Shown in pieces: positions 4,182 through 21,689 of a stretch of 22,000 bases of DNA (positions within the stretch are counted from its first letter, which is position 1; every line of letters begins with the position of its first letter). Source of the stretch: Bacillota bacterium (lineage in GTDB: Bacteria > Bacillota > Limnochordia > Darwinibacteriales > DTU012). The translations under genes were made by a program, and so were the position numbers. The stretch is taken from positions 1 to 22,000 of the forward strand of contig JAAYLQ010000154.1 of NCBI GenBank assembly GCA_012521805.1, written 5' to 3'. The notes beneath the pieces are model-generated. The model had not been told where the DNA came from. It worked only from the letters and a program-made list of their open reading frames with translations, and did not search any database.

Positions 4182-4219
4182 GATGAGGATTGTATTTCAC
4201 GAGCTATGGAGGGTTTTTA

Positions 4220-4966
4220 GTGAAATCAAAGATCGGTATTGCGATGCTTGTTGTTGGGATGCTGATAGTATTCCAGGGCAGCTGTATCGCTGTTAATCCG
4301 GGTACAGCTATTAGTGGAGCTCTTATGCATGGAATCAGGAATCCGGCGGGATTACAAGGATTGGTCACCCCAGAATTTTCCATGCAGTTGCGAATAGTGT
4401 CTGGGGAATCCCAGCAGTATCAGATCAGCTATGCAGAGCCTGATTATGGAACCGGTGCAGGTCTGCTCCATATTCTCTATCAAGAGTCACTGCGGCAGAT
4501 TACCTATTCTGTGGCAGCTGACTTGTTAGAGACCACTGATGCAGGTGTTGCTCTTCACTACATCAGTGTTCCAGAATCAGGGAACAAGTACATCAGTACT
4601 GATCTAGGATTGCAGCTGAATCTCGATCATCTAAGCTGGCTGCGCTTTGGACTATTAGTTGAGAATTTTTGGCATCTGAAACTTGGTGAAACCGAAACTG
4701 CTCTTCCGACAAATGTGACTATTGGAGCAGCGGTAGATTTAGCCGGATATGGTGTGCTGGCCTTGGATATTAATGATGCTTGGAACATCAACTCAGCTCG
4801 CAAATTGTTGGCTGGAGTGGAACTTTATCCAACCCCAGACTTAGCTTTACGTGCTCGCTGGATTGATAGTTTAGGATTAGGCATCGGGTATACGCACCAG
4901 CAGATGCGCATTGACTATGACTGGGCTGCCGGCGAACATCAACTGTGCTTCCGCTGGCAGTTCTAA
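4220..4966 (+). CDS. Small outer-membrane beta-barrel protein with FadL/PorV-like NPAGL motif (putative)
   Basis: I prefer the GTG at 4220 (SD ggaggg at 4208-4213, 6-nt spacer) over the listed ATG at 4190. Signal peptide IGIAMLVVGMLIVFQGSCIA. An N-terminal GIRNPAGLQGL motif is present. The C-terminus CFRWQF ends in Phe. Confidence 0.6.
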   Translation: MKSKIGIAMLVVGMLIVFQGSCIAVNPGTAISGALMHGIRNPAGLQGLVTPEFSMQLRIVSGESQQYQISYAEPDYGTGAGLLHILYQESLRQITYSVAADLLETTDAGVALHYISVPESGNKYISTDLGLQLNLDHLSWLRFGLLVENFWHLKLGETETALPTNVTIGAAVDLAGYGVLALDINDAWNINSARKLLAGVELYPTPDLALRARWIDSLGLGIGYTHQQMRIDYDWAAGEHQLCFRWQF

Positions 4967-5003: not shown

Positions 5004-6125
5004 ATGATGATTCAAACAAAGCCAAGCCGAGCCTCGGTGTTGCGCGGTTCAACAATCTTGGATCGGTATACCTTGCGCGAATTTTTCTGGCCTTTTATCT
5101 TCTGTGTCATTGGATTTACAGTTATCTTATTGAGCGGAGTGCTGTTTGAATTAATCGATCTGTTTTTAGTTAAGAAGGTTTCAATTAATACAGTAAGCAG
5201 AATGCTGATTTATTATCTGCCGGGTATTGTTGTAATGACACTGCCGGTTGCTGCCCTTTTCTCTACTCTTTTAGGTTTAGGCCGTCTGAATCAGGACAGT
5301 GAAATGATTATTATGTGCAGCAGCGGACTGCCTTATTGGCGGATCATGATACCGGTGGTAATTGCCGGGTTGATTATCAGCGGAGTTACCTATGTTTTGA
5401 ATGAGGAAATCGTACCTTGGACTAATCATGAATTCCAGAAGTTATTCCGAGAGTTATTTTACCAAGAAGATTCACCCCTAATTGAAGAAAACATCTTCTT
5501 TTTAGGGGGGGAAAACCGCTACTTTTACATTAACGAGGTTAATAAACAGAAGCATGAGTTTAAGAATATCTTAGTTTATGAAACCCAATCTAACCAGTTC
5601 CCGCGCCTGATTACGGCTGCAGCTGGAACTTACCGCGATAACCATTGGTATCTGGAGGATGGTCTGATCCAAAACCTCGATGAGGACGGATATGTGAGCT
5701 ATCAAACTCGTTTTGAAACAATGCAGATTATCACTCCTGATTCTTCTGATCTTTATTTTGGCAATCAAAAAACCAGCGATGAAATGAGCCGCAAAGAGTT
5801 AAAGGAGCACATTGAACGATTTCAGCGCAGCGGCTTAAAGGTGCTGTCTTTTGTGGTAGATTATCATTTGAAACTGGCACTGCCAATGGCATCGTTCATA
5901 TTTGTGTTATTTGCAGCTCCCCTTAGCTTATTCAGCAAGAGCAGCAAATCCTTTGGCATTGCGGTCAGTTTAGTGGTGACACTTCTTTATTATGTAGCTA
6001 CTCCTGTCTGCCGTTCTCTGGCGGTTAATGAGGTAATCCCACCCCTGGCTGCTGCTTGGCTGACTAACAGCATCTTTGCAATAGCTGGTATTGTTTTGTT
6101 AATCCGTGCGGACCGGCTGCATTGA
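5004..6125 (+). CDS. LptF/LptG-family LPS export ABC permease (YjgP/YjgQ)
   Basis: Family N-terminus LDRYTLREFFWPFIFCVIGFTVILL. Three TMs are followed by a ~150-aa periplasmic domain (NEEIVPWTNHEF...YRDNHWYLEDG) and then three more TMs. Only one such gene is present in the window. Confidence 0.85.
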   Translation: MMIQTKPSRASVLRGSTILDRYTLREFFWPFIFCVIGFTVILLSGVLFELIDLFLVKKVSINTVSRMLIYYLPGIVVMTLPVAALFSTLLGLGRLNQDSEMIIMCSSGLPYWRIMIPVVIAGLIISGVTYVLNEEIVPWTNHEFQKLFRELFYQEDSPLIEENIFFLGGENRYFYINEVNKQKHEFKNILVYETQSNQFPRLITAAAGTYRDNHWYLEDGLIQNLDEDGYVSYQTRFETMQIITPDSSDLYFGNQKTSDEMSRKELKEHIERFQRSGLKVLSFVVDYHLKLALPMASFIFVLFAAPLSLFSKSSKSFGIAVSLVVTLLYYVATPVCRSLAVNEVIPPLAAAWLTNSIFAIAGIVLLIRADRLH

Positions 6126-6126
6126 A

Positions 6127-8298
6127 ATGAAGGTGGTATACTTGCACAGATTTAGAATTTTTATATTGGTATCCATGCTTGCTGTGCTAGTCAGCTTTGG
6201 AACAGCAGCAGCCGATTCTCAGCTGCCGATTACGATCGAAGGTGCGGATCTAGCACGCTGGGATTATAAACAGCAGCTGCTGTATGCATCCGGCAGCGTG
6301 ATTCTTGCAGTTGATGATCTGTTGTTGAAAGGTGATTCGCTGCTGTGGGATATGGAAAAGCAGGAATTATACCTGGAGGGCAGTGTCAGGCTGGAACAGG
6401 GCGATGCTTATCTTGAAGGTGAAAGCTTAATTTATAACGTGGATCAGGCTCAGGGTAAGTTTGTAAAGCCCCGGACTGAACTGGTTTCGGAAAAAATTGA
6501 AGGCCCGATTTTTGTTTTTAGTGACCATGTTGAAATAGACTCTGACAGCTATCTGATGGATAAAGGTGTCCTGACTACTTGTGATTTAAGCGAACCCCAT
6601 TATCATCTGGCTGTCAATAAACTTGAGATCTATCCCGGTAACAAGATGGTCATTCGCGGAGTACGCTTTTATGAAGGGAAGCTGCCGCTGTTTTATTGGC
6701 CTTATCTGGTTCTTCCTCTCGATGGACGCTATGATGATTTCGATTTTACTCTGCCGGAAATCGGCTATAATGCCAGGGATGGATATTATATCAAGAACCG
6801 TTATAACTACTATTTCAGTTCAAATGCTCATGGAGCTCTGCTTTATGATTACTATACCCGCCAAGGTTTAGGTTTAGGTGTAAATCATAATTACCGCCAT
6901 GAGCTGCTCGGGGAAGGTGAAATGGCATTCTATACTCTGCCTTTTGCCACCAGCAAATACTTGGCAGCTCAGCTTCAGCATAAATTTACTGCAGATAATT
7001 TCAGCTTTGTTACCAAGAACTCTTATGCGAGGCAGTATCAGGGTGCGGCTTTGAAGCAGGACAGCTCTAGTTCAACCAGCTTATCGTATCAAACTGACAA
7101 GATGCGCTTGAATGGCAGTTTCAACTATCGGTTAAACCAAAAGGAAGCTGACAAGACTAGTGCATGGACTGCGTCGGGAGCTTGGCGGCAGCTGCTGAGC
7201 ACTAATTGGGATTTCAATGCCAGCTCAAAAATTATGGCTGCCGATGATACTAAAGTTTACGATTATCTGCTTGAAACAAACTACCGCCTCAACAACCATT
7301 CATTAAACTTAGCAGTGCAGCAGAAGTACAATCCGGATCTGCTGGACGAGAACAAGGTTCCTGCATGGAGCAGTGTTAACCGTCTGCCAGAATTGTCTTG
7401 GCGGTGGCAAAACCCAACAGTAGCTGGTGTTAGTATTCCCGGTAGGATTCAGCTTTCCCTTGGTAAGTTTAGTGAATATCCTTCGGGGGTGACCAGCTGG
7501 AGGCTTGCGCCTTATGCCGAATTGTTGACTCAGAGCTGGCGATCAGATCATGGTACTACTCTGACCTTGAGCGGGAATGTGTCCGGGTATTTTTACGATA
7601 CTGGCCAAAACCAGCAGGCTTTATACGGACGCTTAGGATTGATTCAACAGCTGAGCGAAAATACGCGGATAACTGCAAATTATTATAAGCGTTTTGTATG
7701 GGGAGAGACTCCATTTAAATTTGATCAGCTGAAACAAGAAGACCAGTTGAGCGGAACTTTCAGGTATTCAAAACAGCCGTTCACATTAGTTCTCAGCAGC
7801 GGATATAATTTTCTTACCCAGCGGTTTAACAACTTACTGACTCAGATCAGTTACAGCAGTGCTGCTGAACCAGTGACTGTCAATTTTGTGGCAAATTATG
7901 ATCTAAACAATCATCGATTCGGAGATCTGAGCGGCAGTATTAGTTATCGACCGCAAGCTGATTGGGTATTTAATCTCGGTGCAGTATATAATGTCAGTAA
8001 TCAGGCGCTGAAATGGGTGAATGGAAAAATTGTCTTCGACCTGTCTGAGACAGTAAGACTCAGCTATGATTTAATTTATGAGCCTGAGAAAACTCAGAAG
8101 CTGCAGACTGGCAAGTTGGTACTAACTTTTGATCTGCACTGCCGTGAGTTAAAGTTCAGCTACGATCAGGTTCGGGAAGAGTTTAAAGTTCAGTATTCAA
8201 TCAATGCTTTCCCGAAACTGCCAATTGAGATTAGTTCGAAGGAAGGAATCAGTTTCTTTGAACTCGAAGATCTTAAAGACTTATTTGAGAGTGATTAA
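6127..8298 (+). CDS. lptD: LPS-assembly outer membrane protein LptD (OstA family)
   Basis: I prefer the ATG at 6127, 1 nt after the lptF/G stop, over the listed GTG at 6106, which overlaps it. Signal peptide (ILVSMLAVLVSFGTAAA). An OstA-type N-terminal jellyroll is present (GSVILAVDDLLLKGDSLLWD...LEGSVRLEQGDAYLEGESLIYN). The LptD signature is TTCDLSEPHYHLAVNKLEIYPGNKMVIRGVRFYEGKLPLFYWPYLVLPL. A ~500-aa Y/N/S-rich barrel follows. Confidence 0.85.
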   Translation: MKVVYLHRFRIFILVSMLAVLVSFGTAAADSQLPITIEGADLARWDYKQQLLYASGSVILAVDDLLLKGDSLLWDMEKQELYLEGSVRLEQGDAYLEGESLIYNVDQAQGKFVKPRTELVSEKIEGPIFVFSDHVEIDSDSYLMDKGVLTTCDLSEPHYHLAVNKLEIYPGNKMVIRGVRFYEGKLPLFYWPYLVLPLDGRYDDFDFTLPEIGYNARDGYYIKNRYNYYFSSNAHGALLYDYYTRQGLGLGVNHNYRHELLGEGEMAFYTLPFATSKYLAAQLQHKFTADNFSFVTKNSYARQYQGAALKQDSSSSTSLSYQTDKMRLNGSFNYRLNQKEADKTSAWTASGAWRQLLSTNWDFNASSKIMAADDTKVYDYLLETNYRLNNHSLNLAVQQKYNPDLLDENKVPAWSSVNRLPELSWRWQNPTVAGVSIPGRIQLSLGKFSEYPSGVTSWRLAPYAELLTQSWRSDHGTTLTLSGNVSGYFYDTGQNQQALYGRLGLIQQLSENTRITANYYKRFVWGETPFKFDQLKQEDQLSGTFRYSKQPFTLVLSSGYNFLTQRFNNLLTQISYSSAAEPVTVNFVANYDLNNHRFGDLSGSISYRPQADWVFNLGAVYNVSNQALKWVNGKIVFDLSETVRLSYDLIYEPEKTQKLQTGKLVLTFDLHCRELKFSYDQVREEFKVQYSINAFPKLPIEISSKEGISFFELEDLKDLFESD

Positions 8299-9363: not shown

Positions 9364-9398
9364 ACATTAGCTCCCAGTAATAGCTACTATTACCGCTT

Positions 9399-9454
9399 AA
9401 AACCCTCCTGCGTGGTGTGCTATAATTAAAACACCAGGTGAGGAGGGGTTTTTT
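9399..9454 (+). terminator. Terminator-like hairpin after lptA; its 3' arm contains the SD of the next gene
   Basis: ccctcct (9403-9409) pairs with aggaggg (9441-9447), and tggtgt (9413-9418) pairs with acacca (9431-9436). A flanking A-run lies at 9399-9402 and a T-run at 9449-9454. The T-run abuts the ATG at 9455. Confidence 0.55.
9418..9426 (+). promoter_or_regulatory. Extended -10 promoter element (TGcTATAAT) located in the loop of the 9399-9454 hairpin
   Basis: tgctataat lies at 9418-9426, 29 bp upstream of the ATG at 9455. There is no good -35 (ttaaaa at 9397-9402). The predicted TSS near 9433 would give a ~20-nt leader carrying only the SD arm. Confidence 0.5.
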
Positions 9455-11602
9455 ATGTTCAAGTTTTTTAGGGACGGATTTTATCGTGATTATATAATAC
9501 TAATTTTGGTTACGATCATTGTCGGAGCCGCAGTCTCCTCAGGAGTAGCCTGGGCAGTGGATTCGTATTTTGGCGATACAATCCAGGATGTAATTGGCGA
9601 TAATGGAGAATATGATTTGATCCTCCATGTTCGCGAAGCTTCAAAAGAAGCTGCACTCCGTGAATTAGAACGAATTGCAGACCAGCAGTTTAAAGGTGCA
9701 GTTATCAATCAGACGATTTCAGTTGCAGGTCAAGCGAATTTTCTGTTTGGTTTTCCTCAAGAAGCAAAGACTGAGGACACCTTCTCCCGCCTGCCGTCGA
9801 TCTTTAACGGCGTGCCTGGTTTGAGCAGTTACACTGTAATTGTTGAGCCAAGTGTACTGGTGCGCGGCGTGCATCCTAGTGTTTCCCAAACACTGCAGCA
9901 GCGCTTCAGTCAGCTTGATGGTGTCGATTTTGCGTTTAAAGATGGAAAGAATATGCTTGTTGTTTTAGAGTCTGCAGAGCATTCCAAAGCAGTAATGAAT
10001 GAAATAAGAGAGATTCTTAAGGAATATCAAGTTTTAGAAGTGCGTTTTCCCATTGGCTTTGAAGTAGATGTGCAGAAAACTGCCCATGCGGTTATGGAGG
10101 TACTGAAAGAGCAAGCCAAGTCAGCAAAACTGTCCAATGTATCTTCAGCGGAGTATGGAGAAGAATTGGATGCTTTGATGAAGACCTTGGTAGAAATGCG
10201 CCATTTTCTATTGAGCTATGCATCAAAGGTAAAGATTACCCTTAATCATAATTCCAATTTGGTGGTAGGAGAACAGATCATTGTTCAAGGTATGAGTGAG
10301 CAGGCACCGATTAAAGGTGAGTCAATTGCTCCAGATCATGTAGTGATCGAAGTTCTCGATGTCCAGGGAAACCAAGCCCAAGGCATGATTGTTTCTGGTT
10401 CCATTGCTGAAGCTGGAGAAGTGTTAGTTCAAGCAGGCTATAAATATCACAGCGATGACCTAGTGGGTGAGCCGGTTGGTGAAGTTCAGTTGGAAAACGA
10501 GCGCTATCGTTTAAACTATGCTATTAGCGAAAGTCTGCGTCTGCTGGAAGAGCTTGATGAGCTGTCAGTTGAAGCGGCAGTAGCAGTTGAGCGTGCAGAC
10601 GCTGTGTTGACTACTTTTCAAGAAGCGTTAATGCAGCTAGAAGTACTGCAGGTACAGATGCGGCAGTTGAATGAAGGTTTAGCAGAGAATGGAGCTCAGT
10701 CCACCAGTGAGCAGCTGATTATCTCGCTATTTTTAAACGGATTGCTGAAAAATATTGCGAAAAGCGGTTCAGAGGGAGCAGCTGAATATGGTTTGGACAG
10801 CTTAGAAAATCTAGACGTAGCTTCGATGCGCTCCAGCTTAGGCAGTATTTCAGAACAGATCAGCAACGTTCAGGAAATTGATGTTCAAGCAATCATCAAC
10901 CAAATTGTTGATATTCGTGACAGTCTTCCAGAGCTTGATGATGAAGAGATCGGTAAGTCAGTGCGATTGGTCGACAATTATATCGGTGGGCAGGTAATTC
11001 CAGGGGAAAGAATTCAGATATTAGTAGAAAACGCTACCATTGATGAGGAAAAAGTTGAGCCGCTGATTCGGGAGCAGTTAGATAACCAGTACCTCAACAC
11101 CTATACTATTTCTGTCGGTACAGTTAATCCTGATACACGCACAGAAGTGTTCCGCATCCTCAAAGAAGTGCGTGCTACAATAGCTGGTATTCTATCGATC
11201 GTTTTTGTCGGTGTGTTCCTCATGCTGGATCATGCTTCAATCTTTAGTACCCTGAAATGGATTAGAGCTAACAAGAAGGCTTCCAAAAACCGATTAGTTC
11301 GTTACTTTAATCCAGTCATGATTTTGGGAGTGATCGTGGGAACCGCGCTGCTGACCGCGACTTACACTTTAAGCAGGGCAGCAATTCCTTATGTTTCCAT
11401 GAGTACAGTCTTGATTATTGGGGCTGTCTTAGGCGGCCTAATCGGGATGTTTTCTGAGAAGTTCAGTCCAGTTCATGCAGATGAAATTATGGCCGGCCTT
11501 TCCTTAGGCTTAAGCAACGTGCAGATTATGCATGAGATTGTAATTCCAGCAAGCAGGCCAGGATTGTTGAACTTACTGAACCGTACAAAGCAAAGGTTTT
11601 AA
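9455..11602 (+). CDS. Atypical ABC-transporter membrane subunit: 1 TM, ~540-aa extracytoplasmic domain, 3 TM, and a C-terminal EAA-like coupling motif (function unknown)
   Basis: Strong SD gaggagggg. N-terminal TM YIILILVTIIVGAAVSSGVAWAV follows a basic cytoplasmic head. Residues ~36-575 are soluble, with alpha/beta modules and a heptad-rich stretch at nt ~10490-10715. C-terminal TMs are IAGILSIVFVGVFLML, VMILGVIVGTALLTATYTL and TVLIIGAVLGGLIGMF, with a K/R-rich loop between the first two. The tail ADEIMAGLSLGLSNVQIMHEIVIPASRPGLL (nt ~11477-11569) resembles the EAA-G-I-LP loop of type I ABC importer permeases, but the protein ends 10 aa later. Confidence 0.65.
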   Translation: MFKFFRDGFYRDYIILILVTIIVGAAVSSGVAWAVDSYFGDTIQDVIGDNGEYDLILHVREASKEAALRELERIADQQFKGAVINQTISVAGQANFLFGFPQEAKTEDTFSRLPSIFNGVPGLSSYTVIVEPSVLVRGVHPSVSQTLQQRFSQLDGVDFAFKDGKNMLVVLESAEHSKAVMNEIREILKEYQVLEVRFPIGFEVDVQKTAHAVMEVLKEQAKSAKLSNVSSAEYGEELDALMKTLVEMRHFLLSYASKVKITLNHNSNLVVGEQIIVQGMSEQAPIKGESIAPDHVVIEVLDVQGNQAQGMIVSGSIAEAGEVLVQAGYKYHSDDLVGEPVGEVQLENERYRLNYAISESLRLLEELDELSVEAAVAVERADAVLTTFQEALMQLEVLQVQMRQLNEGLAENGAQSTSEQLIISLFLNGLLKNIAKSGSEGAAEYGLDSLENLDVASMRSSLGSISEQISNVQEIDVQAIINQIVDIRDSLPELDDEEIGKSVRLVDNYIGGQVIPGERIQILVENATIDEEKVEPLIREQLDNQYLNTYTISVGTVNPDTRTEVFRILKEVRATIAGILSIVFVGVFLMLDHASIFSTLKWIRANKKASKNRLVRYFNPVMILGVIVGTALLTATYTLSRAAIPYVSMSTVLIIGAVLGGLIGMFSEKFSPVHADEIMAGLSLGLSNVQIMHEIVIPASRPGLLNLLNRTKQRF

Positions 11603-11614
11603 GGAGGGATCCAG

Positions 11615-12343
11615 ATGCTGAAAATTAAAGGTTTGAAAAAGCAGTACGGCAAACAGATTGCTATTGATGGTGTAGATTTGGAAGTGAAACGCGGTGAAAC
11701 GATAGTGATTATGGGTCCCAGCGGCTGCGGTAAATCGACAACAATCCGCTGTATCAATCGCTTAACTGAACCAGATGCGGGTGAAATTTTACTTGATGGC
11801 CAATCGGTTTTAAGTCTTAAAGATGAGGAACTGCGCAGATTTCGGAGAACAATTGGATTTGTGTTTCAGCAGTTTAATCTTATTGCTAGATTGACTGTGT
11901 TAGATAATGTCATGTTTCATCTCGTTTTGGCAGGTATCCCGCGGGCGGAGGCAGAAGCTAGAGCTAAGCAGGCATTGGCGAAGGTTGGTTTGACTGGTTC
12001 TGAGAAAAAGTATCCTTCTGCTCTCAGCGGTGGTGAACAGCAGAGGGTGGGTATTGCCCGAGCCCTTGTTTCCAATCCGCAGCTGATGCTTTGGGATGAG
12101 CCTACTGCCTCGCTGGATCCAATTCTAGTTGGTGAAGTGTTAGAAGTGATGGAGGAATTGGTGCAGACAACCAAGACAACATCGATTATTGTAACGCATG
12201 AAGTTGGTTTTGCGCTGAAAGCTGCGGATCGAATTGTCCTGATGGATCGGGGCAGAATCGTAGAATCTGGAGCGCCCCAGGTTATTTTTAACGATCCTCA
12301 GTCTGAAATCGGCAAGAAATACCAGCGGCTGATTGCCTGCTGA
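11615..12343 (+). CDS. ABC transporter ATP-binding protein, GlnQ/HisP (polar amino acid)-like NBD
   Basis: SD aggaggg. Walker A GPSGCGKST followed by IRCINRL, Q-loop FQQFNL, signature LSGGEQQRVGIARAL, Walker B MLWDEPTASLDP, and H-loop IIVTHEVGFA. It starts 12 nt after the preceding membrane protein. Confidence 0.9.
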   Translation: MLKIKGLKKQYGKQIAIDGVDLEVKRGETIVIMGPSGCGKSTTIRCINRLTEPDAGEILLDGQSVLSLKDEELRRFRRTIGFVFQQFNLIARLTVLDNVMFHLVLAGIPRAEAEARAKQALAKVGLTGSEKKYPSALSGGEQQRVGIARALVSNPQLMLWDEPTASLDPILVGEVLEVMEELVQTTKTTSIIVTHEVGFALKAADRIVLMDRGRIVESGAPQVIFNDPQSEIGKKYQRLIAC

Positions 12344-12385
12344 GTTTTGGCAGGAGAAAAGCTTTTAGTGCCGAAATAGTAAAAC

Positions 12386-12410
12386 AAGCCGAGGAAATCT
12401 CGGCTTATTT
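12386..12410 (+). terminator. Probable weak rho-independent terminator after the ABC pair
   Basis: Stem aagccgag (12386-12393), loop gaaat, stem ctcggctt (12399-12406). The T-tract is poor (attt), so read-through into fabZ is plausible. Confidence 0.5.
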
Positions 12411-12444: not shown

Positions 12445-12903
12445 GTGAATATTGATCAAATATTGAAGCAGCTGCCGCATCGTTATCCCTTTTTGATGGT
12501 GGATAAGGTGCTGGAGTTAGAAAGGGGAAAGAGGATAGTGGCGGTTAAAAATATAACTATTAACGAGCCCTTTTTTCAAGGTCACTATCCCCATTTTCCA
12601 GTGATGCCTGGCGTAATGATTATTGAGGCTATGGCCCAGGCAGGGGGATTAGCTGTAGCAGCGGATGCTGATGATGGGAATGATGCTGCGGTTCCGCTGC
12701 TGGCTGCTGTCAATAAGGCGAAATTCAGAAAAATGGTTAGACCCGGAGATCAATTGATAATCGAGGTTGATATTTTAAGGGCCAGCAGCCGCCTTGTCAA
12801 AGCAGCTGCTCAAGCTCGGGTCGACGATGAACTGGCAGCAGAAAGCGAATTGACCTTTGTGCTTACAAAGAGAGGAGCCAATGATAGCAATGGCGCAGAA
12901 TAG
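12445..12903 (+). CDS. fabZ: 3-hydroxyacyl-ACP dehydratase FabZ
   Basis: SD gaaggtgga and a GTG start. Canonical motifs LPHRYPFLMVDKV, NEPFFQGHYPHFPVMPGVMIIEAMAQ and KAKFRKMVRPGDQL are present. Confidence 0.92.
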   Translation: MNIDQILKQLPHRYPFLMVDKVLELERGKRIVAVKNITINEPFFQGHYPHFPVMPGVMIIEAMAQAGGLAVAADADDGNDAAVPLLAAVNKAKFRKMVRPGDQLIIEVDILRASSRLVKAAAQARVDDELAAESELTFVLTKRGANDSNGAE

Positions 12904-14766: not shown

Positions 14767-14809
14767 GATGGTCAGTGGTGTGGAGGGATTTGAAAGGGGT
14801 GAGCTGCAG

Positions 14810-15910
14810 ATGTATGGTTTTACTTTAATTTTTATACTCGCTTTTATAGGCGGTGTAATTGCCTATATTGGCGATAAAATTGGTATGAAAGTAGGTCGTA
14901 AGCGGCTCACTTTATTTGGACTGCGCCCAAAATATACTGGTATTATTATCACTATTTTTACCGGAATTTTTATTTCTGTTGCCTCCATTGTAATTTTAAC
15001 TATTGCGTCAGATGATGTGCGGACAGCACTATTTGAGATGAAAGAGATTCAAGAAACTCTGGCTGCTAATCAGCAGCAGCTGGATCAAAGTATTCAGGCT
15101 ATGAGTCAAATGGAGGCAGACTTACAGACATTAATTATTCAGCGTGATGCGGCAGCGGCGGATTTGGCCGAAGCACAGGAGCTTTATGCGGAGTTAGAGC
15201 AGATGCGTGCTCAGCTCCAGTTAGAGTATGATCAGCTTTTAGCTGAGTACGAGGAGCTGTCGTTAGACTACAGTGAGCTCTACATGTTTGCCAATTGGAT
15301 CCGCCTCGGCAACGTTGCTTTCCGGGCTGAACAGATCATTTATGCTCAAGTTGTGGAAGCAAGCGATAATTTAGAGGAAAATTACAGCCGGCTGTATGAT
15401 GTATTAAAAACAGCTGATCGAATTGCTTATCAATCTGGAGCAAGGGTTGACAGCGATTCTGAATCAGCAATCATCATACCCCAGGATGCAGTGGATTTTG
15501 CAGCCCTCTATATTCAGCAGGAACAGGGATTGTTTGTTGTGCGGGTCCTTTCAGAAACAAACACTGTGGTAGGCCAACCGGTCAAAGCCTATTTAGGGAT
15601 AATCAAAAATGAGCTTATATTTCCGAAAGACACAGTGCTGGAGGAAACAGTAGTCGATCTGGACGCTGAGCCAGACGTGGATAAGGAAATTTTGGAACTG
15701 TTAAACAGGGCAAATGCTGTGGCTGTTCGCGAGGGCATGATTACCTCAATCGGTGGTGGTGCTGTAGAAGTGGACGGCAATGAGTTTATGAATGCTATTG
15801 CCCAAGCGGAAGCCAGTTCAGGTAAGATCAAAATTCAAGCAAAAGCTTTAGAAGATACTTTTGCTGCAGCTGGTCCTGTGAAAATTAAACTGGATATAAT
15901 CCAAGATTAA
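14810..15910 (+). CDS. DUF3084-like membrane protein: 2 TM, coiled coil, and a C-terminal globular domain
   Basis: I prefer the ATG at 14810 (SD aaggggtgag upstream) over the listed ATG at 14768. The N-terminus LIFILAFIGGVIAYIGDKIGMKVGRKRLTLFGLRPKYTGIIITIFTGIF matches my recollection of the DUF3084 signature (GDxxGxKxGKKRLxLFxLRPxxT). A Q/E/L-rich coiled coil (res ~85-165) and a ~200-aa mixed domain follow. Confidence 0.6.
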   Translation: MYGFTLIFILAFIGGVIAYIGDKIGMKVGRKRLTLFGLRPKYTGIIITIFTGIFISVASIVILTIASDDVRTALFEMKEIQETLAANQQQLDQSIQAMSQMEADLQTLIIQRDAAAADLAEAQELYAELEQMRAQLQLEYDQLLAEYEELSLDYSELYMFANWIRLGNVAFRAEQIIYAQVVEASDNLEENYSRLYDVLKTADRIAYQSGARVDSDSESAIIIPQDAVDFAALYIQQEQGLFVVRVLSETNTVVGQPVKAYLGIIKNELIFPKDTVLEETVVDLDAEPDVDKEILELLNRANAVAVREGMITSIGGGAVEVDGNEFMNAIAQAEASSGKIKIQAKALEDTFAAAGPVKIKLDIIQD

Positions 15911-16044: not shown

Positions 16045-16186
16045 TTACATAAACCACCCTCAAAAAAAATAAATTTTGTAGAAGGAATATACTTGAGAAG
16101 TGTAGAAAGAAAGAAAAAGATGATGTTGTGAAATCGGTCTTTTTCCTTTTTTTCTAACCTCTGTAAAATTGATGGGAAAGGGGGAA

Positions 16187-16214
16187 TTACTGCTTATACA
16201 TAAAGCATTATACT
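16187..16214 (+). promoter_or_regulatory. Possible promoter for the OmpM-like gene (-35 ttactg, 16-bp spacer, -10 tatact)
   Basis: ttactg at 16187-16192 and tatact at 16209-16214. This would give a ~120-nt leader containing the 16241-16292 stem-loop. It is the best of several weak candidates in the spacer. Confidence 0.3.
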
Positions 16215-16342
16215 ATTAACAGAGGTGATAAAAAATCGGCAGTAAAGCAGTACGGAGAGGAAACACAGGGAAACTCGTTTGTACGCTTTACTAAACTGAT
16301 TACCAGAAGTTAGGTAAAATATCAATTAGGAGGTTATTGCTG

Positions 16343-18943
16343 ATGAACTCTAAAAAAGTTTCTGCAGTATTAGCAGCGATATTAGTTCTTGCGCTGTCTG
16401 CATCTGTATTCGCAGCTAATCCTTTTTCAGATGTACCTGCACATCACTGGGCTTACGACTCAATAACTAAGTTAGCTGCTGTAGGCTTAGTCGAAGGCTA
16501 TCCTGATGGTACATTTGGTGGAACAAGAACCATGACTCGTTATGAAGCTGCTATGGTGTTTGCTCGTGCTTTAGCTAGATTGGAAGCATTAGTAGAAAGC
16601 CAAGTTGTTTCCAACACTGCTGGCGTTCAAGAGCGCATCACCGCTGACATTTTAGCTGAGTTAGAATCAGTCACAGATGAGTTGGCTGCTCTGATTGAAG
16701 CTAAACTTGCTGATCTGGACGTTGTGGTTAAGGAAGCAGTTGCAGAAGAACTTACAGCAGCTGGTCTGCAGTCTGCTGATCGTCCGTTTGTAATGAGTGA
16801 GGAAGCTGAGGCTGTGCTCGCTGAATTAGTTGGCGAATTAACCAAAGCTTATTTGGCTGAAGCTAAGGAATTAGCAACAGAGACAATCGTTGAAACTGGT
16901 GTTATCGAAAGAGTTGTAGTTGAAGATGTGGATGAAGCTGTTGTTAAAGCTATCGCAGAGGAAGTATTAGCTTCCAGCTTATGGGCTATTGAAGATGAAA
17001 TCTTCGACAACGCTCAATATGTCGAAATGGTTACCAGCAGAATTAACGACCGTTTAGGCCGTGTAACCAGAGACGTTGATGTGATCGCTGCTTCTTATGT
17101 AAGTAAAGACGAAGTTGAAGATCGCTTTTATGATCTTGAGTCTGCTATTGAAAGCAATGCTGATTACGTCACTATGGTAACCAACCGCATTAATGATCGT
17201 TTAGGTCGGGTAACCAAGGATGTTGATGGCTTAAAAGCTGCTCGTACAGAGGATCTCAACACTGTCAATGGCTTAATTGCTGCACTTCAAGGCGATGTAG
17301 CTGCACTCCAGGAAGCTTTGGATGCAGAAGTATTGGCCCTGACAAACACATTTACTAAAGTTAACGATGAGTTTGCTGACGAGCTGGCTCTTCTCGGCGT
17401 GCGTGTAGATGATTTAGAAAAACTCTATGCTAATCTTGACAGCCGTGTTACTGATGTTGAAGCTTCTGTAGCTGAAGTTGAAGCTTCTGTAGCTGAAGTT
17501 GAGGCTGCTGTAGCTGAATTAGATGCTAAAGTAGATGAAGCAACCAAAGTTAAATTAGCAGGTTCAGTTAAGTATGAAACTGGTAAAACCAAAATTACCA
17601 CTGTGGTTGGTGAAAACACCGTTGAGCTGGACAATGCTCAAGGCATCTTAAACAATTACAGCAAAGACTTAAAGTCTGATACCAATCTTGAAGTAAACTT
17701 GAGTGCTCGTTTAAGCGAGGGCACCACTGTTAACTTAACATTAGGCGGCAAGACAGATCTTCCAGCAACTGTTGATAGCCTGAATAAGTATGTACTTGAA
17801 GTAGTAAGCGATACTCCAGTTAATCGCTTTGCGGTAGGTACAGTTGGTGAAGATGTACCTGCAAGATTTGACACTAATGCTTTAGCTGTTAAACCTGATA
17901 GAGGTGCGGTAGCTGACATCGCTTTAGGTGATCTCAATCTCTATGCTCTTGCAGGCCAAAGAGCAGATGACGGTATGTTAGCATTAGGTGCTAAATACTC
18001 ACTGGTTCCAGCGTTTGGCTTTAAACTGACCGGTGCTGCCTACACTGAGAAAGATTTAAATTATGCTGATGAAACTGCTGTAGCTGCAGGCTTGTTTGGT
18101 ACAGTTTTGGGCGTAGATTATGACGTTAAAGTTGCATTGGATCGCTTCAAAGCTGAAGATGCAGATGAAGGTGACGACGAAAGCAAGAGCCTGACCAATA
18201 ACATGCTCTTCGACGTAAACCTTGGCGCTGATCTCGGCCTGGTAAGCGTTGACGCTGGCTGGACCAGAGCTGGTGCGGATTTTGGTACTGGCAAGCTGAC
18301 TGGTAAAGGTTTCTTTGACAGCAATGCCCAGACCAGACTGCGCCTCGATGCTGGTGCTGATCTGTTTGGTGTTGATCTGCAGGCAGCTACTTATCTTGAA
18401 CAAGATTCCAATGGCGATAACCTGATCAGCGCTGCAATGCTGAATGCTGGTTATGAATTTAATCTCTTCCTGCCAATTAACCTCGCTGGTGCGTATGGCT
18501 GGAAGGCGCCTCAAGATCCAAGTGCAGAAAACGATGTTCACACCCAACTTAAAGTTGGTACTGGTTTAGACCTGTTTGGCGTTGATGTAGATGGAAGCTT
18601 CACCTATGTGAACAACTACATTGATGGTGACTGGCGCAATCCAGGAAATTGGTTGGGTAAAGATCTGAACTTAGTAAATGTTACCCTTGGTTATAATGCT
18701 GATAACTTCGGCGGTGCTAATTTAGATTTAGGCTATAACTTTGAGTTAGCTATTCCAAGAGATGATGCTACTGCTGATGTGTTTGGCAACCAAATGACCC
18801 ATATCTTATCTGCTGGTTACGGTTTTGCAGATGGAATGAAATTAAATATGTCTGCTAAGAGAGTTAACATCAACTCTGCAGAAGAAAATGTTCCTGCAGT
18901 TAATGTTAACGAACTCAAAGCTGGCTTAGAATTCTCATTCTAA
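16343..18943 (+). CDS. OmpM-type OM-peptidoglycan tether/porin: SLH domain, ~320-aa coiled-coil linker, C-terminal beta-barrel
   Basis: I prefer the ATG at 16343 (SD aggagg at 16328-16333, 9-nt spacer). Signal peptide (VLAAILVLALSASVFA/ANP). Canonical SLH domain FSDVPAHHWAYDSITKLAAVGLVEGYPDGTFGGTRTMTRYEAAMVFARAL. An A/E/V/L/D-rich heptad region spans nt ~16590-17550. The G/D/N/Y-rich barrel ends in the beta-signal LKAGLEFSF. Codon usage is strongly biased to GCT/GTT/GGT/GAA, and the gene is flanked by a strong terminator, which suggests high expression. Confidence 0.85.
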   Translation: MNSKKVSAVLAAILVLALSASVFAANPFSDVPAHHWAYDSITKLAAVGLVEGYPDGTFGGTRTMTRYEAAMVFARALARLEALVESQVVSNTAGVQERITADILAELESVTDELAALIEAKLADLDVVVKEAVAEELTAAGLQSADRPFVMSEEAEAVLAELVGELTKAYLAEAKELATETIVETGVIERVVVEDVDEAVVKAIAEEVLASSLWAIEDEIFDNAQYVEMVTSRINDRLGRVTRDVDVIAASYVSKDEVEDRFYDLESAIESNADYVTMVTNRINDRLGRVTKDVDGLKAARTEDLNTVNGLIAALQGDVAALQEALDAEVLALTNTFTKVNDEFADELALLGVRVDDLEKLYANLDSRVTDVEASVAEVEASVAEVEAAVAELDAKVDEATKVKLAGSVKYETGKTKITTVVGENTVELDNAQGILNNYSKDLKSDTNLEVNLSARLSEGTTVNLTLGGKTDLPATVDSLNKYVLEVVSDTPVNRFAVGTVGEDVPARFDTNALAVKPDRGAVADIALGDLNLYALAGQRADDGMLALGAKYSLVPAFGFKLTGAAYTEKDLNYADETAVAAGLFGTVLGVDYDVKVALDRFKAEDADEGDDESKSLTNNMLFDVNLGADLGLVSVDAGWTRAGADFGTGKLTGKGFFDSNAQTRLRLDAGADLFGVDLQAATYLEQDSNGDNLISAAMLNAGYEFNLFLPINLAGAYGWKAPQDPSAENDVHTQLKVGTGLDLFGVDVDGSFTYVNNYIDGDWRNPGNWLGKDLNLVNVTLGYNADNFGGANLDLGYNFELAIPRDDATADVFGNQMTHILSAGYGFADGMKLNMSAKRVNINSAEENVPAVNVNELKAGLEFSF
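17456..17518 (+). repeat. 3 x 21-bp tandem repeat encoding heptads VEASVAE/VEASVAE/VEAAVAE inside the OmpM linker
   Basis: gttgaagcttctgtagctgaa occurs at 17456-17476 and, identically, at 17477-17497. The third copy gttgaggctgctgtagctgaa (17498-17518) has 2 substitutions. Confidence 0.9.
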
Positions 18944-19046: not shown

Positions 19047-19454
19047 ATGGAAGTTAAGAAAGGACCAATTTTAGCAGTTGATCCCGGCAGGGAGAAATGC
19101 GGCGTAGCGATAGTGGATGAAGGCAAAACACTGCTGCAGGAGGTGGTTGCCCGCGCAAGTATAATGGAAAGACTAAGCTCAATTATGCCAGCTTCTGGAC
19201 CAATAGTCGTTGGTGATCGTACTGGAAGCAAAACTTTTATCCAGGAATTAAAAGCTGCGATACCAGCAGCAGCGAATCGAATAGTTACGGTGAATGAACA
19301 TCTCTCCAGTGTTGAAGCCCGGTCACTGTATTGGCAGAATAATCCTCCTCGGGGATGGCGCAGACTTCTTCCCGTCTCACTGCAGACACCACCGGTGCCA
19401 ATAGATGATTATGTGGCAGTAATTTTAGCACACCGCTACTTGGATGGAAAATAG
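19047..19454 (+). CDS. YqgF/RuvX-like RNase H-fold nuclease (divergent)
   Basis: SD aggggtga. The N-terminal ILAVDPGREKCGVAIVDE matches the LGxDxGxxxxGVAxxD pattern. VVGDRTGS, VNEHLSSVEAR and the C-terminal DDYVAVILAHRYL fit the YqgF-family layout. The assignment is to family only. Confidence 0.55.
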   Translation: MEVKKGPILAVDPGREKCGVAIVDEGKTLLQEVVARASIMERLSSIMPASGPIVVGDRTGSKTFIQELKAAIPAAANRIVTVNEHLSSVEARSLYWQNNPPRGWRRLLPVSLQTPPVPIDDYVAVILAHRYLDGK

Positions 19455-19545
19455 CGGCAATCTCACAAATAACTTGAATTAAGAAGGATTTGAGGCAGTT
19501 TTGGCGAAATTTAGATCAAGATAAACAGTGAAAAGGGGGGTTGTT

Positions 19546-20751
19546 GTGAACAGGAAATATGGCATCGTTTTCCTTGTGATAATGATGTTCCTTGTAATGC
19601 TGACAACAACCTGCTCTGCACAAGAACAAGTCACTGCCAAGTGGGTCTATGAGGCTATTAATTATTTGAATGATCGGCCATTTGGAGATTTTTATACCGA
19701 TATCGATCCTGAAAATCGCTATCAAGTTTCATTAGCGATAGCGAATACAATTCAAAGCTTAGATCGCAGTGAGAGTTCACGCATTCAGCGCTTTGGTATA
19801 AGCAGAAGAATCAGTCTCCAGGATATGATTGTTGAGTACAATTTAACCGCTGCAGAGGATTTGCAGCTTTCGAATCAGCAGATCCTAGCTTTAACTGCTT
19901 TGGCTGTTGAATACCACAATGAATTGAATGTACTCGGCTACTGGATTGAAGACTTAAGTCCAAATAATCCGCTTGATATTAATTCGCAGAAAACAGAGGA
20001 TGAACTGCCAGATTCAATGATTGCTTTCAGCGGTAATGTTGTCCTTTCCCAACCTGGGACTGGGCAGACAGCCGCCGCTTTAAATCGGGAACGAGTTTTG
20101 AGCAAATACTTTGGCGATGATGATAAAAACACGCAAATTCTGATCAACAATTTAATTCCGCTTTGGTCTTCTGATTGGTATATTGGGGCTGGGTTGGCGT
20201 TATCAGAGGAGAGAGATGCAGATAATGAGGCCACTGGTTATGCTGGTATTGTAGGCGAATATCTAATAAACAAAGATGTGGTTCTTGAGGGGCAGTATCT
20301 GCACAACTTAGCGCAGCCGCTGGACCCAGGTATTCTCCAGTTAGGGGCCAGGGGTCGATTTGGCAATATGGAGCTGAGGGGATTAGTCCAGACTCAGGAT
20401 AATGAAGAGCTTGGTGCTATGGCCAGCTTAGATCTTATTTATGGAGGACCAAACTCCCTTTCAATTCGAGCAGGATATAACGCAAACTTGAAGACAATTT
20501 CTCAGCTGAGCACCAGCATAGATGTGGACATCCCTATTCCTCAGGGTCGCATTATGCTGGGTGTGTCGCAAGAATGGAATCAGGACCACAACTTCGACGA
20601 GGATGATCCTGATAAGTTGACAGATCAAACCAAGGCATCGATAGAATTTAACTACGATTTTTCTCAGGAGATGTCATTTAAATTAGACTATCGATTGATT
20701 GATTTTAGTGATGTTGATCGGGCGTTCGCGGGATTTTCCATCAGATTCTAG
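19546..20751 (+). CDS. Outer-membrane beta-barrel protein with a degenerate SLH-like N-terminal domain (OmpM paralogue candidate)
   Basis: I prefer the GTG at 19546 (SD aagggggg, 5 nt upstream) over the listed GTG at 19528. Signal peptide IVFLVIMMFLVMLTTTCSA/QE. AKWVYEAINYLNDRPFGDFYTDIDPENRYQVSLAIANTIQSL (nt 19636-19761) aligns by eye to the W-x-Y-x-x-I-x-x-L...R-x-x-x-A pattern of the SLH domain of the 16343 gene. The C-terminal beta-signal FAGFSIRF is present. Confidence 0.6.
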   Translation: MNRKYGIVFLVIMMFLVMLTTTCSAQEQVTAKWVYEAINYLNDRPFGDFYTDIDPENRYQVSLAIANTIQSLDRSESSRIQRFGISRRISLQDMIVEYNLTAAEDLQLSNQQILALTALAVEYHNELNVLGYWIEDLSPNNPLDINSQKTEDELPDSMIAFSGNVVLSQPGTGQTAAALNRERVLSKYFGDDDKNTQILINNLIPLWSSDWYIGAGLALSEERDADNEATGYAGIVGEYLINKDVVLEGQYLHNLAQPLDPGILQLGARGRFGNMELRGLVQTQDNEELGAMASLDLIYGGPNSLSIRAGYNANLKTISQLSTSIDVDIPIPQGRIMLGVSQEWNQDHNFDEDDPDKLTDQTKASIEFNYDFSQEMSFKLDYRLIDFSDVDRAFAGFSIRF

Positions 20752-20765
20752 CAAGGAGGAACACT

Positions 20766-21689
20766 ATGAAACTAAAGCTTGTAAGCTGTCTTTTAATTCT
20801 GGGTATGCTGGTAAGTTCATTTACTGCGGCCGCTCAAACCAGCACATCTCCCTTGTCGGTTCTTAATGAATTAGAAAGGGTGCTGTATGGAGATGCGCGT
20901 AAAGGTGCCTTACTCAGTCGTGTTGAAGATTTAGAGATGGAAATATTTGGTTCGCCCCAATCTGGACCAGTGATGACACGCATTGACCGCATTGATGATT
21001 ACCTATCCGGTGATCTGCATGGAACTGGTCTTAAGCTGCAGTTAAATCTGGTTGAATGGGGTTTTTTAGAACAGCTGGCTACAAGCGAACCGCTGATGAG
21101 CCGACTGGAGAGAATAGAACTAGAGTTTATTGGCGAGCTGCAGCAGGGTGCTATTGCTGATCGTCTCGAACAGCTGATGCTGTATATCTGGGGTACCACC
21201 AAACTGGATATGGTACCTGTAAAGATCCCAGCATCTACTTTAGTTGAGATTCAGCTGTTAACTTCTGTTGATTCGGCCCTCAATAAAGTTGGCGATCAGG
21301 TTAAGTATAAGGTAGCATCTGATGTAATCGTTGATGGTCGAATTGTTATTCCCAAGGGTACTTTGGGAGTGGGCAAAATAACAGAAGTAAGCAGTGCAGG
21401 CAATCTAGGCAAAAATGGTCGGATTGTAATTGACTTTGGAGCAGTTCAGTCGTTTGATGGGCGCAATATCAGACTGGCGATTGCAGAGAAGGCCTTGGAG
21501 CAGAACAGCCGCTTGGAATTGGCTGCCGGTGCAAGTATGGCAGGGGTACTGCTCTTGGGACCGATCGGATTGGTAGGCGGCTACTTTGTTAAAGGCCAGG
21601 ACGTGCAGATCCAGGCTGGCTCTAAATTCTTTGTTGAAACCGAATTGGATTATCAAGTGTTAGGCTTTCGTTTGGTTCCAGTGCGATAA
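20766..21689 (+). CDS. Secreted protein: six ~20-aa helical repeats, a TrbI/VirB10-like beta domain, and a Gly-zipper segment
   Basis: SD aaggagg. Signal peptide LLILGMLVSSFTAAA/QT. Repeats of the form h-x-x-R-h-x-x-h-E-x-x-h-x-G (LNELERVLYG, LLSRVEDLEMEIFG, VMTRIDRIDDYLSG, LMSRLERIELEFIG, IADRLEQLMLYIWG). IPASTLVEIQLLTSVDSALNKVGDQVKYKVASDVIVDGRIVIPKGTLGVGKI...GRIVIDFGAVQSFDGRNIRL and the terminal VQIQAGSKFFVETELD follow the TrbI/VirB10 C-terminal domain pattern. A Gly-zipper segment GASMAGVLLLGPIGLVGG is also present. Confidence 0.55.
   Translation: MKLKLVSCLLILGMLVSSFTAAAQTSTSPLSVLNELERVLYGDARKGALLSRVEDLEMEIFGSPQSGPVMTRIDRIDDYLSGDLHGTGLKLQLNLVEWGFLEQLATSEPLMSRLERIELEFIGELQQGAIADRLEQLMLYIWGTTKLDMVPVKIPASTLVEIQLLTSVDSALNKVGDQVKYKVASDVIVDGRIVIPKGTLGVGKITEVSSAGNLGKNGRIVIDFGAVQSFDGRNIRLAIAEKALEQNSRLELAAGASMAGVLLLGPIGLVGGYFVKGQDVQIQAGSKFFVETELDYQVLGFRLVPVR

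Follow-up and report, generated by a model that had tools for sequence, protein, structure and literature searches.

ATP-binding cassette (ABC) systems are classified by the fold of their transmembrane domain (TMD), and described classes offer close comparisons for a gene pair found in a 22,000-nt stretch of DNA from a Bacillota bacterium of the Limnochordia (contig JAAYLQ010000154.1 of assembly GCA_012521805.1; the whole stretch is called the window below). The pair encodes a 715-aa membrane subunit, denoted X, and a 242-aa ABC ATPase. In the type I importers, such as GlnPQ, HisQMP2, Art(QN)2, TcyLN and MetNI, an EAA loop for coupling to the ATPase follows three transmembrane helices (TMs), at a place equivalent to that seen in X, and it is to GlnQ, TcyN and ArtP of this class that the ATPase of the pair is closest. 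The type VII systems FtsEX, MacB, LolCDE, HrtBA and BceAB share with X a 1+3 TM topology, a large domain between TM1 and TM2 and projecting helices; they need no transmembrane path for a substrate and have envelope-related roles. A further system, LptB2FGC, is also an ABC machine that serves outer-membrane (OM) biogenesis from the periplasmic side of the inner membrane, and its genes flank X in Limnochordia, with lptFG, an lptD-like gene, lptC and lptA upstream and lptB downstream. The reading we favour, with moderate confidence, is that X and its partner form a homodimeric X2-ATPase2 mechanotransducer serving lipopolysaccharide (LPS) or OM biogenesis, and not a solute transporter.

The listing of open reading frames (ORFs) puts the two genes exactly where a preliminary description of this DNA had placed them, on the + strand and 12 nt apart, with the following parts:

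9455..11602, + strand: gene X, encoding the 715-aa membrane subunit (ATG ORF with the ribosome-binding site GGTGAGGAGGGG upstream; homologues align from residue 1 to the end).
9494..9550, + strand: TM1, residues 14-32, the helix extending to about residue 47 as a periplasmic stalk (hydropathy; AlphaFold2 (AF2) helix 2-47).
9551..11173, + strand: predicted periplasmic ectodomain, residues 33-573, about 540 aa (AF2 model; weak profile and Foldseek matches).
10499..10984, + strand: heptad-rich helical or coiled-coil region, residues 349-510 (AF2; PDB profile matches).
11174..11449, + strand: TM2-TM4, residues 574-665, with a K/R-rich cytoplasmic loop at 598-620 (hydropathy; BPD_transp_1 and PotC profile alignments).
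11459..11578, + strand: EAA-type coupling loop, residues 669-708, after which the protein runs on for just 7 residues (hhalign to GlnP 112-151).
11603..11614, + strand: 12-nt spacer between X and the ATPase gene, with the ribosome-binding site GGAGGG inside it (sequence).
11615..12343, + strand: ABC ATPase gene, 242 aa (ORF; catalytic motifs all intact).

The two ORFs share one reading frame, with TAA and 12 nt between them (window 11600-11617).

The evidence that carries the proposed reading begins at the C-terminal end of X. An alignment of the last 156 residues from 26 family members, referred to as A2, was compared by hhalign with E. coli GlnP, HisQ, HisM and MetI and gave a match of 95.6% probability (E 1.3e-8, 40 columns), in which X 669-708 is paired with GlnP 112-151. 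Within this loop A680, G685, P698, R701, P702 and G703 are invariant; the position of the EAA glutamate is M679 in the window copy, and a literal EAARAFG is found in Limnochordales relatives. The EAA-type loop that had been proposed for the tail is thereby upheld, with the small correction that M679 replaces the E of EAA, and a match so far above chance marks the tail as a true EAA coupling loop. A search of the PDB with the A2 profile returned, at E<1, type I permeases in every case, i.e. PotC (0.0019), MetI (0.012), 4yms_D, which is the Art(QN)2 permease (0.048), and PotB (0.26), and the alignment with PotC (PotC 68-184) spans TM helices as well as the loop. The family BPD_transp_1 (PF00528) was matched by 19 of the 26 C-terminal fragments, with a best E of 3.9e-5, and by 28 of 53 full proteins in a scan at E<=10; its gathering cut-off of 26.4 bits was not reached, the best whole-protein score being 21.2 bits (P0108), and the window X itself gave no match at E<=0.01.

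Where the full-length homologues do match BPD_transp_1, they cover positions 13-114 (P0118), 43-114 or 45-112 of its 184 and then end, and, since the matches stop at about 112-114, the last two permease helices are absent. In E. coli GlnP 68 residues follow the loop and form two TMs, whereas X ends 17 residues past P698, so that the missing part comes to some 70 of the 184 Pfam positions. A separate AF2 model of the C-terminal domain (predicted local distance difference test (pLDDT) 86.7, predicted template-modelling score (pTM) 0.75) drew 11 weak matches in Foldseek, all at E>4, among which were five type I permeases and one type VII protein, HrtB. By the sequence comparisons TM2-TM4 and the tail are the equivalent of the core TM1-TM3 and coupling loop of a type I importer permease. 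The idea of a remodelled ABC architecture, put forward in the preliminary description, has gained in strength, as the C-terminal domain can be recognised as a type I permease that breaks off behind its coupling loop.

The early end is a property of the whole family. Among 1.84 billion representative proteins the X family comprises 126 close and 242 total clusters, and a scan in which each species was represented by one genome turned up 191 relatives, from which 79 loci were kept; the matches listed, to which statements on named organisms refer, are 80 of the 191 genome matches and 150 of the 242 clusters. All homologues end 10-20 residues after the loop and none of the orthologues carries two extra C-terminal TMs, and, the shortened C-terminus being common to every homologue, the window gene is not a broken copy. 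In P0240, P0225, P0220, P0250 and P0223 X and the ATPase are fused through a linker of 30-60 residues into single polypeptides of 930-1000 aa, which come from Limnochordales, both from metagenome-assembled genomes (MAGs) and from Carboxydochorda subterranea (WP_324716177.1), a cultured diderm (PMC11456536). The ratio of nonsynonymous to synonymous substitution rates (dN/dS) is 0.08 between two orthologues, synonymous sites being saturated in comparison with the window copy. A truncated copy or pseudogene was rejected on the strength of the identical end in every homologue, the dN/dS value and the fused forms. A split permease, with the missing helices encoded on a small neighbouring ORF, was also rejected, as no small ORF with TMs lies between X and the ATPase gene, even where the gap is about 350 nt.

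The partner ATPase (ABC_tran match, E 5.5e-40) carries the Walker A, Q-loop, signature, Walker B/D-loop and H-switch elements at the expected positions, and all of the motifs that had been quoted in describing it as GlnQ/HisP-like were found. Its best family scores are with TcyN (256.8 bits) and GlnQ (251.5 bits), compared to 186.2 bits with FtsE and 180.4 bits with LolD, and the closest solved ATPases are of the polar-amino-acid type (4u00, ArtP). The curated equivalog cut-offs were all missed, with 256.8 bits vs 406 for TcyN and 251.5 vs 379 for GlnQ. On sequence grounds the ATPase is thus most like the polar-amino-acid importer group, yet it is an orthologue of no named importer ATPase, and profile scores place it outside the FtsE/LolD/MacB clade. 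Wherever a locus extends far enough, the ATPase gene is the one immediately downstream of X, and this adjacency, together with the fusion in Limnochordales, speaks for X and the ATPase as physical partners. Family scans of the window ORFs found no solute-binding-protein family in any of them, in line with the earlier remark that no substrate-binding-protein gene is nearby.

The second line of evidence is the setting of the pair, as the window is an OM biogenesis locus of a diderm Firmicute. It encodes, in order, BamA, two Skp/OmpH proteins, a YjbH-like outer-membrane protein (OMP), one LptF/G, an LptD-like protein of 730 aa, LptC, LptA, X and the ATPase, followed by FabZ, LpxB, LptB, DUF3084, a porin with an SLH domain and a RuvX-like protein. 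When tblastn with the window proteins was applied to the 79 loci, 72 were found to lie inside such a BamA/Skp/Lpt/Lpx locus; of the other seven, three are on contigs of <=4.2 kb and four are second copies, carried by Pelosinus and Dendrosporobacter. The Limnochordia order is lptFG, lptD-like, lptC, lptA, X, ATPase, fabZ, lpxB, lptB, and in Sporomusa ovata (L066) it is lpxD, OMP, lpxL-like, X, ATPase, lpxC, fabZ. The most divergent members also keep their place in the OM locus, namely L080, which has the fused form, L084 (lptC/A-like, X, ATPase, an unknown gene, lptB, DUF3084, SLH protein) and L085 (X, ATPase, lpxC, lpxA). On this evidence the pair, which would be an ATP-powered periplasmic machine, is fixed in the OM locus of two classes of diderm Firmicutes, across Limnochordia and Sporomusaceae.

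Among the matches listed, the sources are Limnochordia or "Bacillota" MAGs and cultured Negativicutes of the Sporomusaceae type. Those named in the genome scan are Sporomusa ovata, S. rhizae, S. aerivorans, S. malonica, Pelosinus and Dendrosporobacter, to which a second protein search adds Methylomusa, Thermosinus and Anaerospora, and nearly all homologue records are titled "hypothetical protein". Orthologues in monoderm Firmicutes, equally common and with no linkage to OM genes, had been named as a finding that would speak against an envelope role; every named source among the matches listed is diderm, and 72 of the 79 loci are in the OM locus.

Four hydrophobic segments of X (residues 14-32, 574-592, 621-639 and 647-665 by Kyte-Doolittle) agree with the AF2 helices. 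The loop 598-620 holds 7 K/R and zero D/E, which by the positive-inside rule places the N-terminus, this loop and the tail 667-715 in the cytoplasm and residues 33-573 outside. The ectodomain is acidic (86 D/E vs 43 K/R), with zero Cys. In the AF2 model of the full protein (mean pLDDT 75.8) it is predicted to begin with ferredoxin-like beta-alpha-beta modules (55-230), followed by a helix (235-255), a beta domain (258-347), a 63-residue helix (349-411) with return helices, of which 408-452 is of low confidence, a beta-alpha-beta-beta module (519-558) and a helix from 561 that runs into TM2; helices 2-47 and 561-605 overshoot the hydrophobic cores 14-32 and 574-592. The preliminary description had deduced one TM, an ectodomain of about 540 aa, three TMs and a tail, with a K/R-rich loop between TM2 and TM3, and had seen beta-alpha-beta modules and a heptad-rich stretch in the ectodomain; hydropathy, the positive-inside rule and the AF2 model are in agreement on the first, the residue counts bear out the second, and the predicted modules and long helix fit the last, the heptad-rich stretch giving only coiled coils in a PDB profile search.

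The searches of the ectodomain returned little else. The single X sequence belongs to no Pfam or NCBIfam family and has no sequence relative in the PDB, and the whole-family profile gave just coiled-coil noise against the PDB for this region. NapD-like (ferredoxin fold) weak matches at 133-196 occur in 22 of the 53 members scanned against Pfam at E<=10, and the local Foldseek matches of the full model are tandem ACT/ferredoxin domains. YhgE/Pip, MCE and LolC families were not reported in the Pfam and NCBIfam scans. Conservation in the ectodomain is highest at GEYGEYDLILHVRE (48-61), directly after TM1, and at LPxLxDEEIG...YIGGQVIPGERIQIL (491-523), directly before the last module, so that both top-conserved motifs flank the membrane; D592 in TM2 is invariant in the family alignment. 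The length of the coiled-coil region differs by lineage, with variants of 577-950 aa among the species, and homologues of 830-950 aa vary there and not in the TMs.

Set against the type I importers, X ends after the loop but carries one TM more, at its N-terminus, as well as an ectodomain of 540 aa, and the pair is without a binding protein, falls below the curated cut-offs and sits in an OM locus. Its likeness to the type VII systems is topological only, as X would couple through a C-terminal EAA loop and not through the major coupling helix between TM2 and TM3, has no detectable FtsX or MacB_PCD homology and is paired with an importer-type ATPase; in addition, the coiled coil is built into the X ectodomain, whereas in FtsEX and MacB it belongs to a separate partner (EnvC, MacA). 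From LptB2FGC the pair differs in that X has neither LptF/G homology nor a beta-jellyroll and has a separate ATPase of a different clade, and the window holds a complete set of Lpt genes besides the X pair.

In the mechanism that we propose, the pair most likely works as the type VII systems do. Established knowledge of MetNI, MalFGK2 and Art(QN)2 suggests that two X subunits would dock their EAA loops in the grooves of an ATPase dimer, as in MetNI or Art(QN)2, where a permease-type homodimer is combined with two ATPases, and the X pair is probably built likewise. ATP-driven closing and opening of the ATPases would then rock the three-helix bundles, and the projecting TM1/TM2 stalks would pass this motion on to the conserved membrane-proximal alpha/beta domain and the coiled-coil arm, in the manner of FtsEX, MacB or LolCDE though with a TMD of another descent. 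With two helices lost behind the loop and no binding protein present, X is unlikely to form a translocation pore, and, because it is seated among OM-building genes, the pair is probably a force-transmitting machine rather than a nutrient importer. Its work is probably done in the periplasm and for LPS or OM assembly, e.g. the extraction or hand-over of lipid or LPS near the Lpt bridge, or the driving of a periplasm-spanning partner.

A number of observations weigh against this mechanotransducer reading. The hhalign match covers the 40-column loop only, and homology of the TM helices rests on the weaker HMM matches; the C-terminal model found nothing significant in Foldseek despite its pLDDT of 86.7, and the full X model found no significant match in the PDB. 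Loop docking, the dimeric state and the lack of a pore are all drawn from homology. The OM locus is a supercluster of all envelope functions, and for this reason adjacency does not identify the substrate. Among the matches listed there is no named member from Veillonellaceae, Selenomonadaceae or Halanaerobiales and, going by these named members, the X pair is not a universal OM component of diderm Firmicutes. Finally, Pelosinus and Dendrosporobacter have a second X+ATPase pair outside the OM locus (L071 9956-13103, L077 2783-5931, L073 and L079).

A conserved Cys-rich gene of 294 aa, which resembles radical-SAM genes in its CxxxCxxC motif alone, follows these second copies, and their context is otherwise unrelated.

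Considering the alternatives, X might be a highly divergent type VII protein, whose "minor coupling helix" at the C-terminus came by convergence to look like an EAA loop through pairing with an ATPase of the polar-amino-acid importer type. The N-in 1+3 TM topology, the large TM1-TM2 domain, the C-terminal cytoplasmic helix and a cytoplasmic TM2-TM3 loop with a short helix are all as expected for such a protein, weak Foldseek matches to FtsX (8tzk_C, E 0.1) and HrtB (7w7c_B, E 6) point the same way, and the beta-alpha-beta modules beside both stalks recall the Porter domain, in secondary-structure order only. Neither FtsX (PF02687) nor MacB_PCD (PF12704) was matched, however, by the window X at E<=0.01 or by ten further homologues at E<=0.1, and neither is among the 25 families most matched by the 53 members at E<=10, whereas the sequence matches that were obtained favour BPD_transp_1 and type I permeases and the ATPase scores 257 bits with TcyN vs 186 with FtsE and 180 with LolD. 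We regard this origin as unlikely.

A second possibility concerns the cargo, the machine being a surrogate for the Lol system that extracts OM-destined lipoproteins from the inner membrane. Diderm Firmicutes had been said in the preliminary description to lack a recognisable Lol pathway, which is correct for Negativicutes, where LolA and LolB are missing, and incorrect for Halanaerobiales, in which a Lol cluster is present (PMC5007114). A putative OM lipoprotein, SonB, is found in Acetonema longum, which "entirely lacks" Lol (PMC13018214), and the X pair combines a LolCDE-like layout with a seat in the OM locus. On the other hand, no LolC, LolE or LolA similarity was found in the family scans or Foldseek, the neighbours are LPS genes (lptC/lptA, lpxC/fabZ/lpxB) and not lipoprotein-maturation genes, no Veillonellaceae or Selenomonadaceae homologue is named among the matches listed although both are also without Lol, and terrabacterial Bam and Lpt machines have been reported to operate without OM lipoproteins (bioRxiv 10.1101/2021.05.31.446380). 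There is some small chance that lipoproteins are the cargo.

Rather improbable, in our judgement, is a role as a periplasm-spanning scaffold or regulator in place of a motor that acts on a lipid, such as a polysaccharide-copolymerase-like element of the Wzz/Wzc/KpsE type in the export of LPS or glycan, or a sensor through which the envelope's state would bear on lipid A synthesis. Foldseek placed Wzc (E 7e-4, prob 0.28) and MmpL5, which bears a coiled coil, at the top of its weak matches for the full X model, and Wzc consists of a TM-flanked alpha/beta base, a helical hairpin and a cytoplasmic P-loop domain; Wzc/Wzz and the MmpL4/5 stalk share with X a TM-flanked periplasmic alpha/beta base that bears a long helical hairpin. 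Also in its favour, the coiled-coil length varies between lineages, and lpxC is the next gene in Sporomusaceae and L085. This is an analogy of layout only, since TM-scores of 0.06-0.12, none above 0.12, mean that there is no real fold match to Wzc or MmpL5, and sequence similarity to Wzc/Wzz and MmpL4/5 is lacking. No Wzz or GNVR match was reported by Pfam, and the full conservation of the ATPase motifs and the coupling loop argues for work cycles and not for a static scaffold.

A solute importer, whether GlnP-like with a substrate-binding ectodomain or one that joins with a canonical permease and a binding protein from genes at another site, is very improbable: the ATPase is closest to those of cystine, glutamine and arginine importers, the loop is of the EAA type and one JGI homologue record is titled "ABC-type amino acid transport system permease subunit", but the two helices after the EAA loop are missing in all members, a binding protein is found neither as a domain in the 53 members nor as a gene in the window, the pair lies in an OM locus and not in a nutrient operon, the importer equivalog cut-offs were all missed, and the 1:1 stoichiometry implied by the fused X-ATPase forms also counts against it. 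Its GlnP-like variant, with fused substrate-binding domains, was rejected specifically, because SBP_bac_3 is absent from all 53 members scanned, even at E<=10, and the model consists of ferredoxin-like modules, a beta domain and a coiled coil.

If the mechanotransducer reading is right, X is of interest for the classification of ABC systems. The system is an ABC machine, and so of a known kind, with a TMD architecture that is conserved but undescribed. A three-helix type I remnant with type VII topology would represent a second evolutionary route to mechanotransmission, and the C-terminal module of X would be a natural minimal coupling module. The broader proposal, that half a type I permease was turned into a mechanotransducer and constitutes an unrecognised class of ABC architecture, an ancient and dedicated LPS/OM component in diderm Firmicutes, is put forward only tentatively and may well be wrong. 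Should it hold, the class may supply an activity for which there is no known machine, such as the extraction of lipid, LPS or lipoprotein or the powering of a periplasm-spanning bridge. OM biogenesis in diderm Firmicutes has gaps, and the X pair is a testable candidate for one missing activity, with cultured hosts in Sporomusa ovata, Pelosinus and Carboxydochorda subterranea.

A survey of OM loci in diderm Firmicutes named COG0816 (RuvX-like), DUF3084 and COG0750 as conserved genes of unknown function and did not name the X pair (PMC5007114). The pair is likewise not described in later literature on Acetonema longum, OmpM, Mla and OM tethering, and we found no description in the literature of a truncated type I-derived TMD acting as a mechanotransducer.

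The pair is set off from its neighbours by intergenic gaps of 91 nt (after lptA) and 101 nt (before fabZ), each of which holds a candidate regulatory element:

9397..9426, + strand: TG-extended promoter-like site TTAAAA-18-TATAAT, in the gap after lptA (10/12 consensus matches).
12382..12410, no strand assigned: GC-rich hairpin GCCGAG-GAAATC-CTCGGC with a T-rich tail, in the gap before fabZ (possible terminator; scored on the minus strand).

The pair had been credited with its own promoter and a terminator. The flanking gaps are real, whereas the two elements are mere consensus matches and the hairpin was scored on the minus strand; the promoter is weak evidence because 8 such sites were observed in the region vs 6.8 expected by chance.

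Several other features of the locus were noted in passing. Two genes of the window, DUF3084 (14768-15910) and the RuvX-like COG0816 gene (19047-19454), travel with the locus across loci, and both belong to the three "new OM-related proteins" to which Antunes et al. (2016) drew attention in Negativicutes and Halanaerobiales. The four ORFs 2260-2937, 4190-4966, 19528-20751 and 20766-21689 have no significant family, apart from a weak sub-threshold TrbI-like match in one of them, and are position-conserved across the Limnochordia OM loci. The SLH-domain porin-like protein (16337-18943) is 868 aa long, with a long coiled-coil-like middle (weak coiled-coil family matches), and its counterpart in L084 has 1312 aa.

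Within the Lpt set, the 730-aa ORF in the LptD position (6106-8298) belongs to no Pfam family and has just a sub-threshold LptA-type match (residues 75-116); the ORF begins before lptFG has ended, and it is probably a very divergent LptD. The single LptF/G gene (window 5004-6125) gets much the same score for LptF as for LptG, implying that the permease is a homodimer, and in the distant locus L084 (5230-8502) the LptF/G domain belongs to a protein of 1090 aa that is greatly extended at its C-terminal end. Among the lipid A genes, the L080 locus, which has the fused form of X, contains two adjoining LpxB-family genes (376 and 432 aa) and an LpxI gene at 16091-18516. In the window the LpxB ORF as called opens with a TTG at 12857 and shares its first 47 nt (12857-12903) with the end of fabZ, and its Pfam match starts at residue 17; the true LpxB start is probably further downstream.

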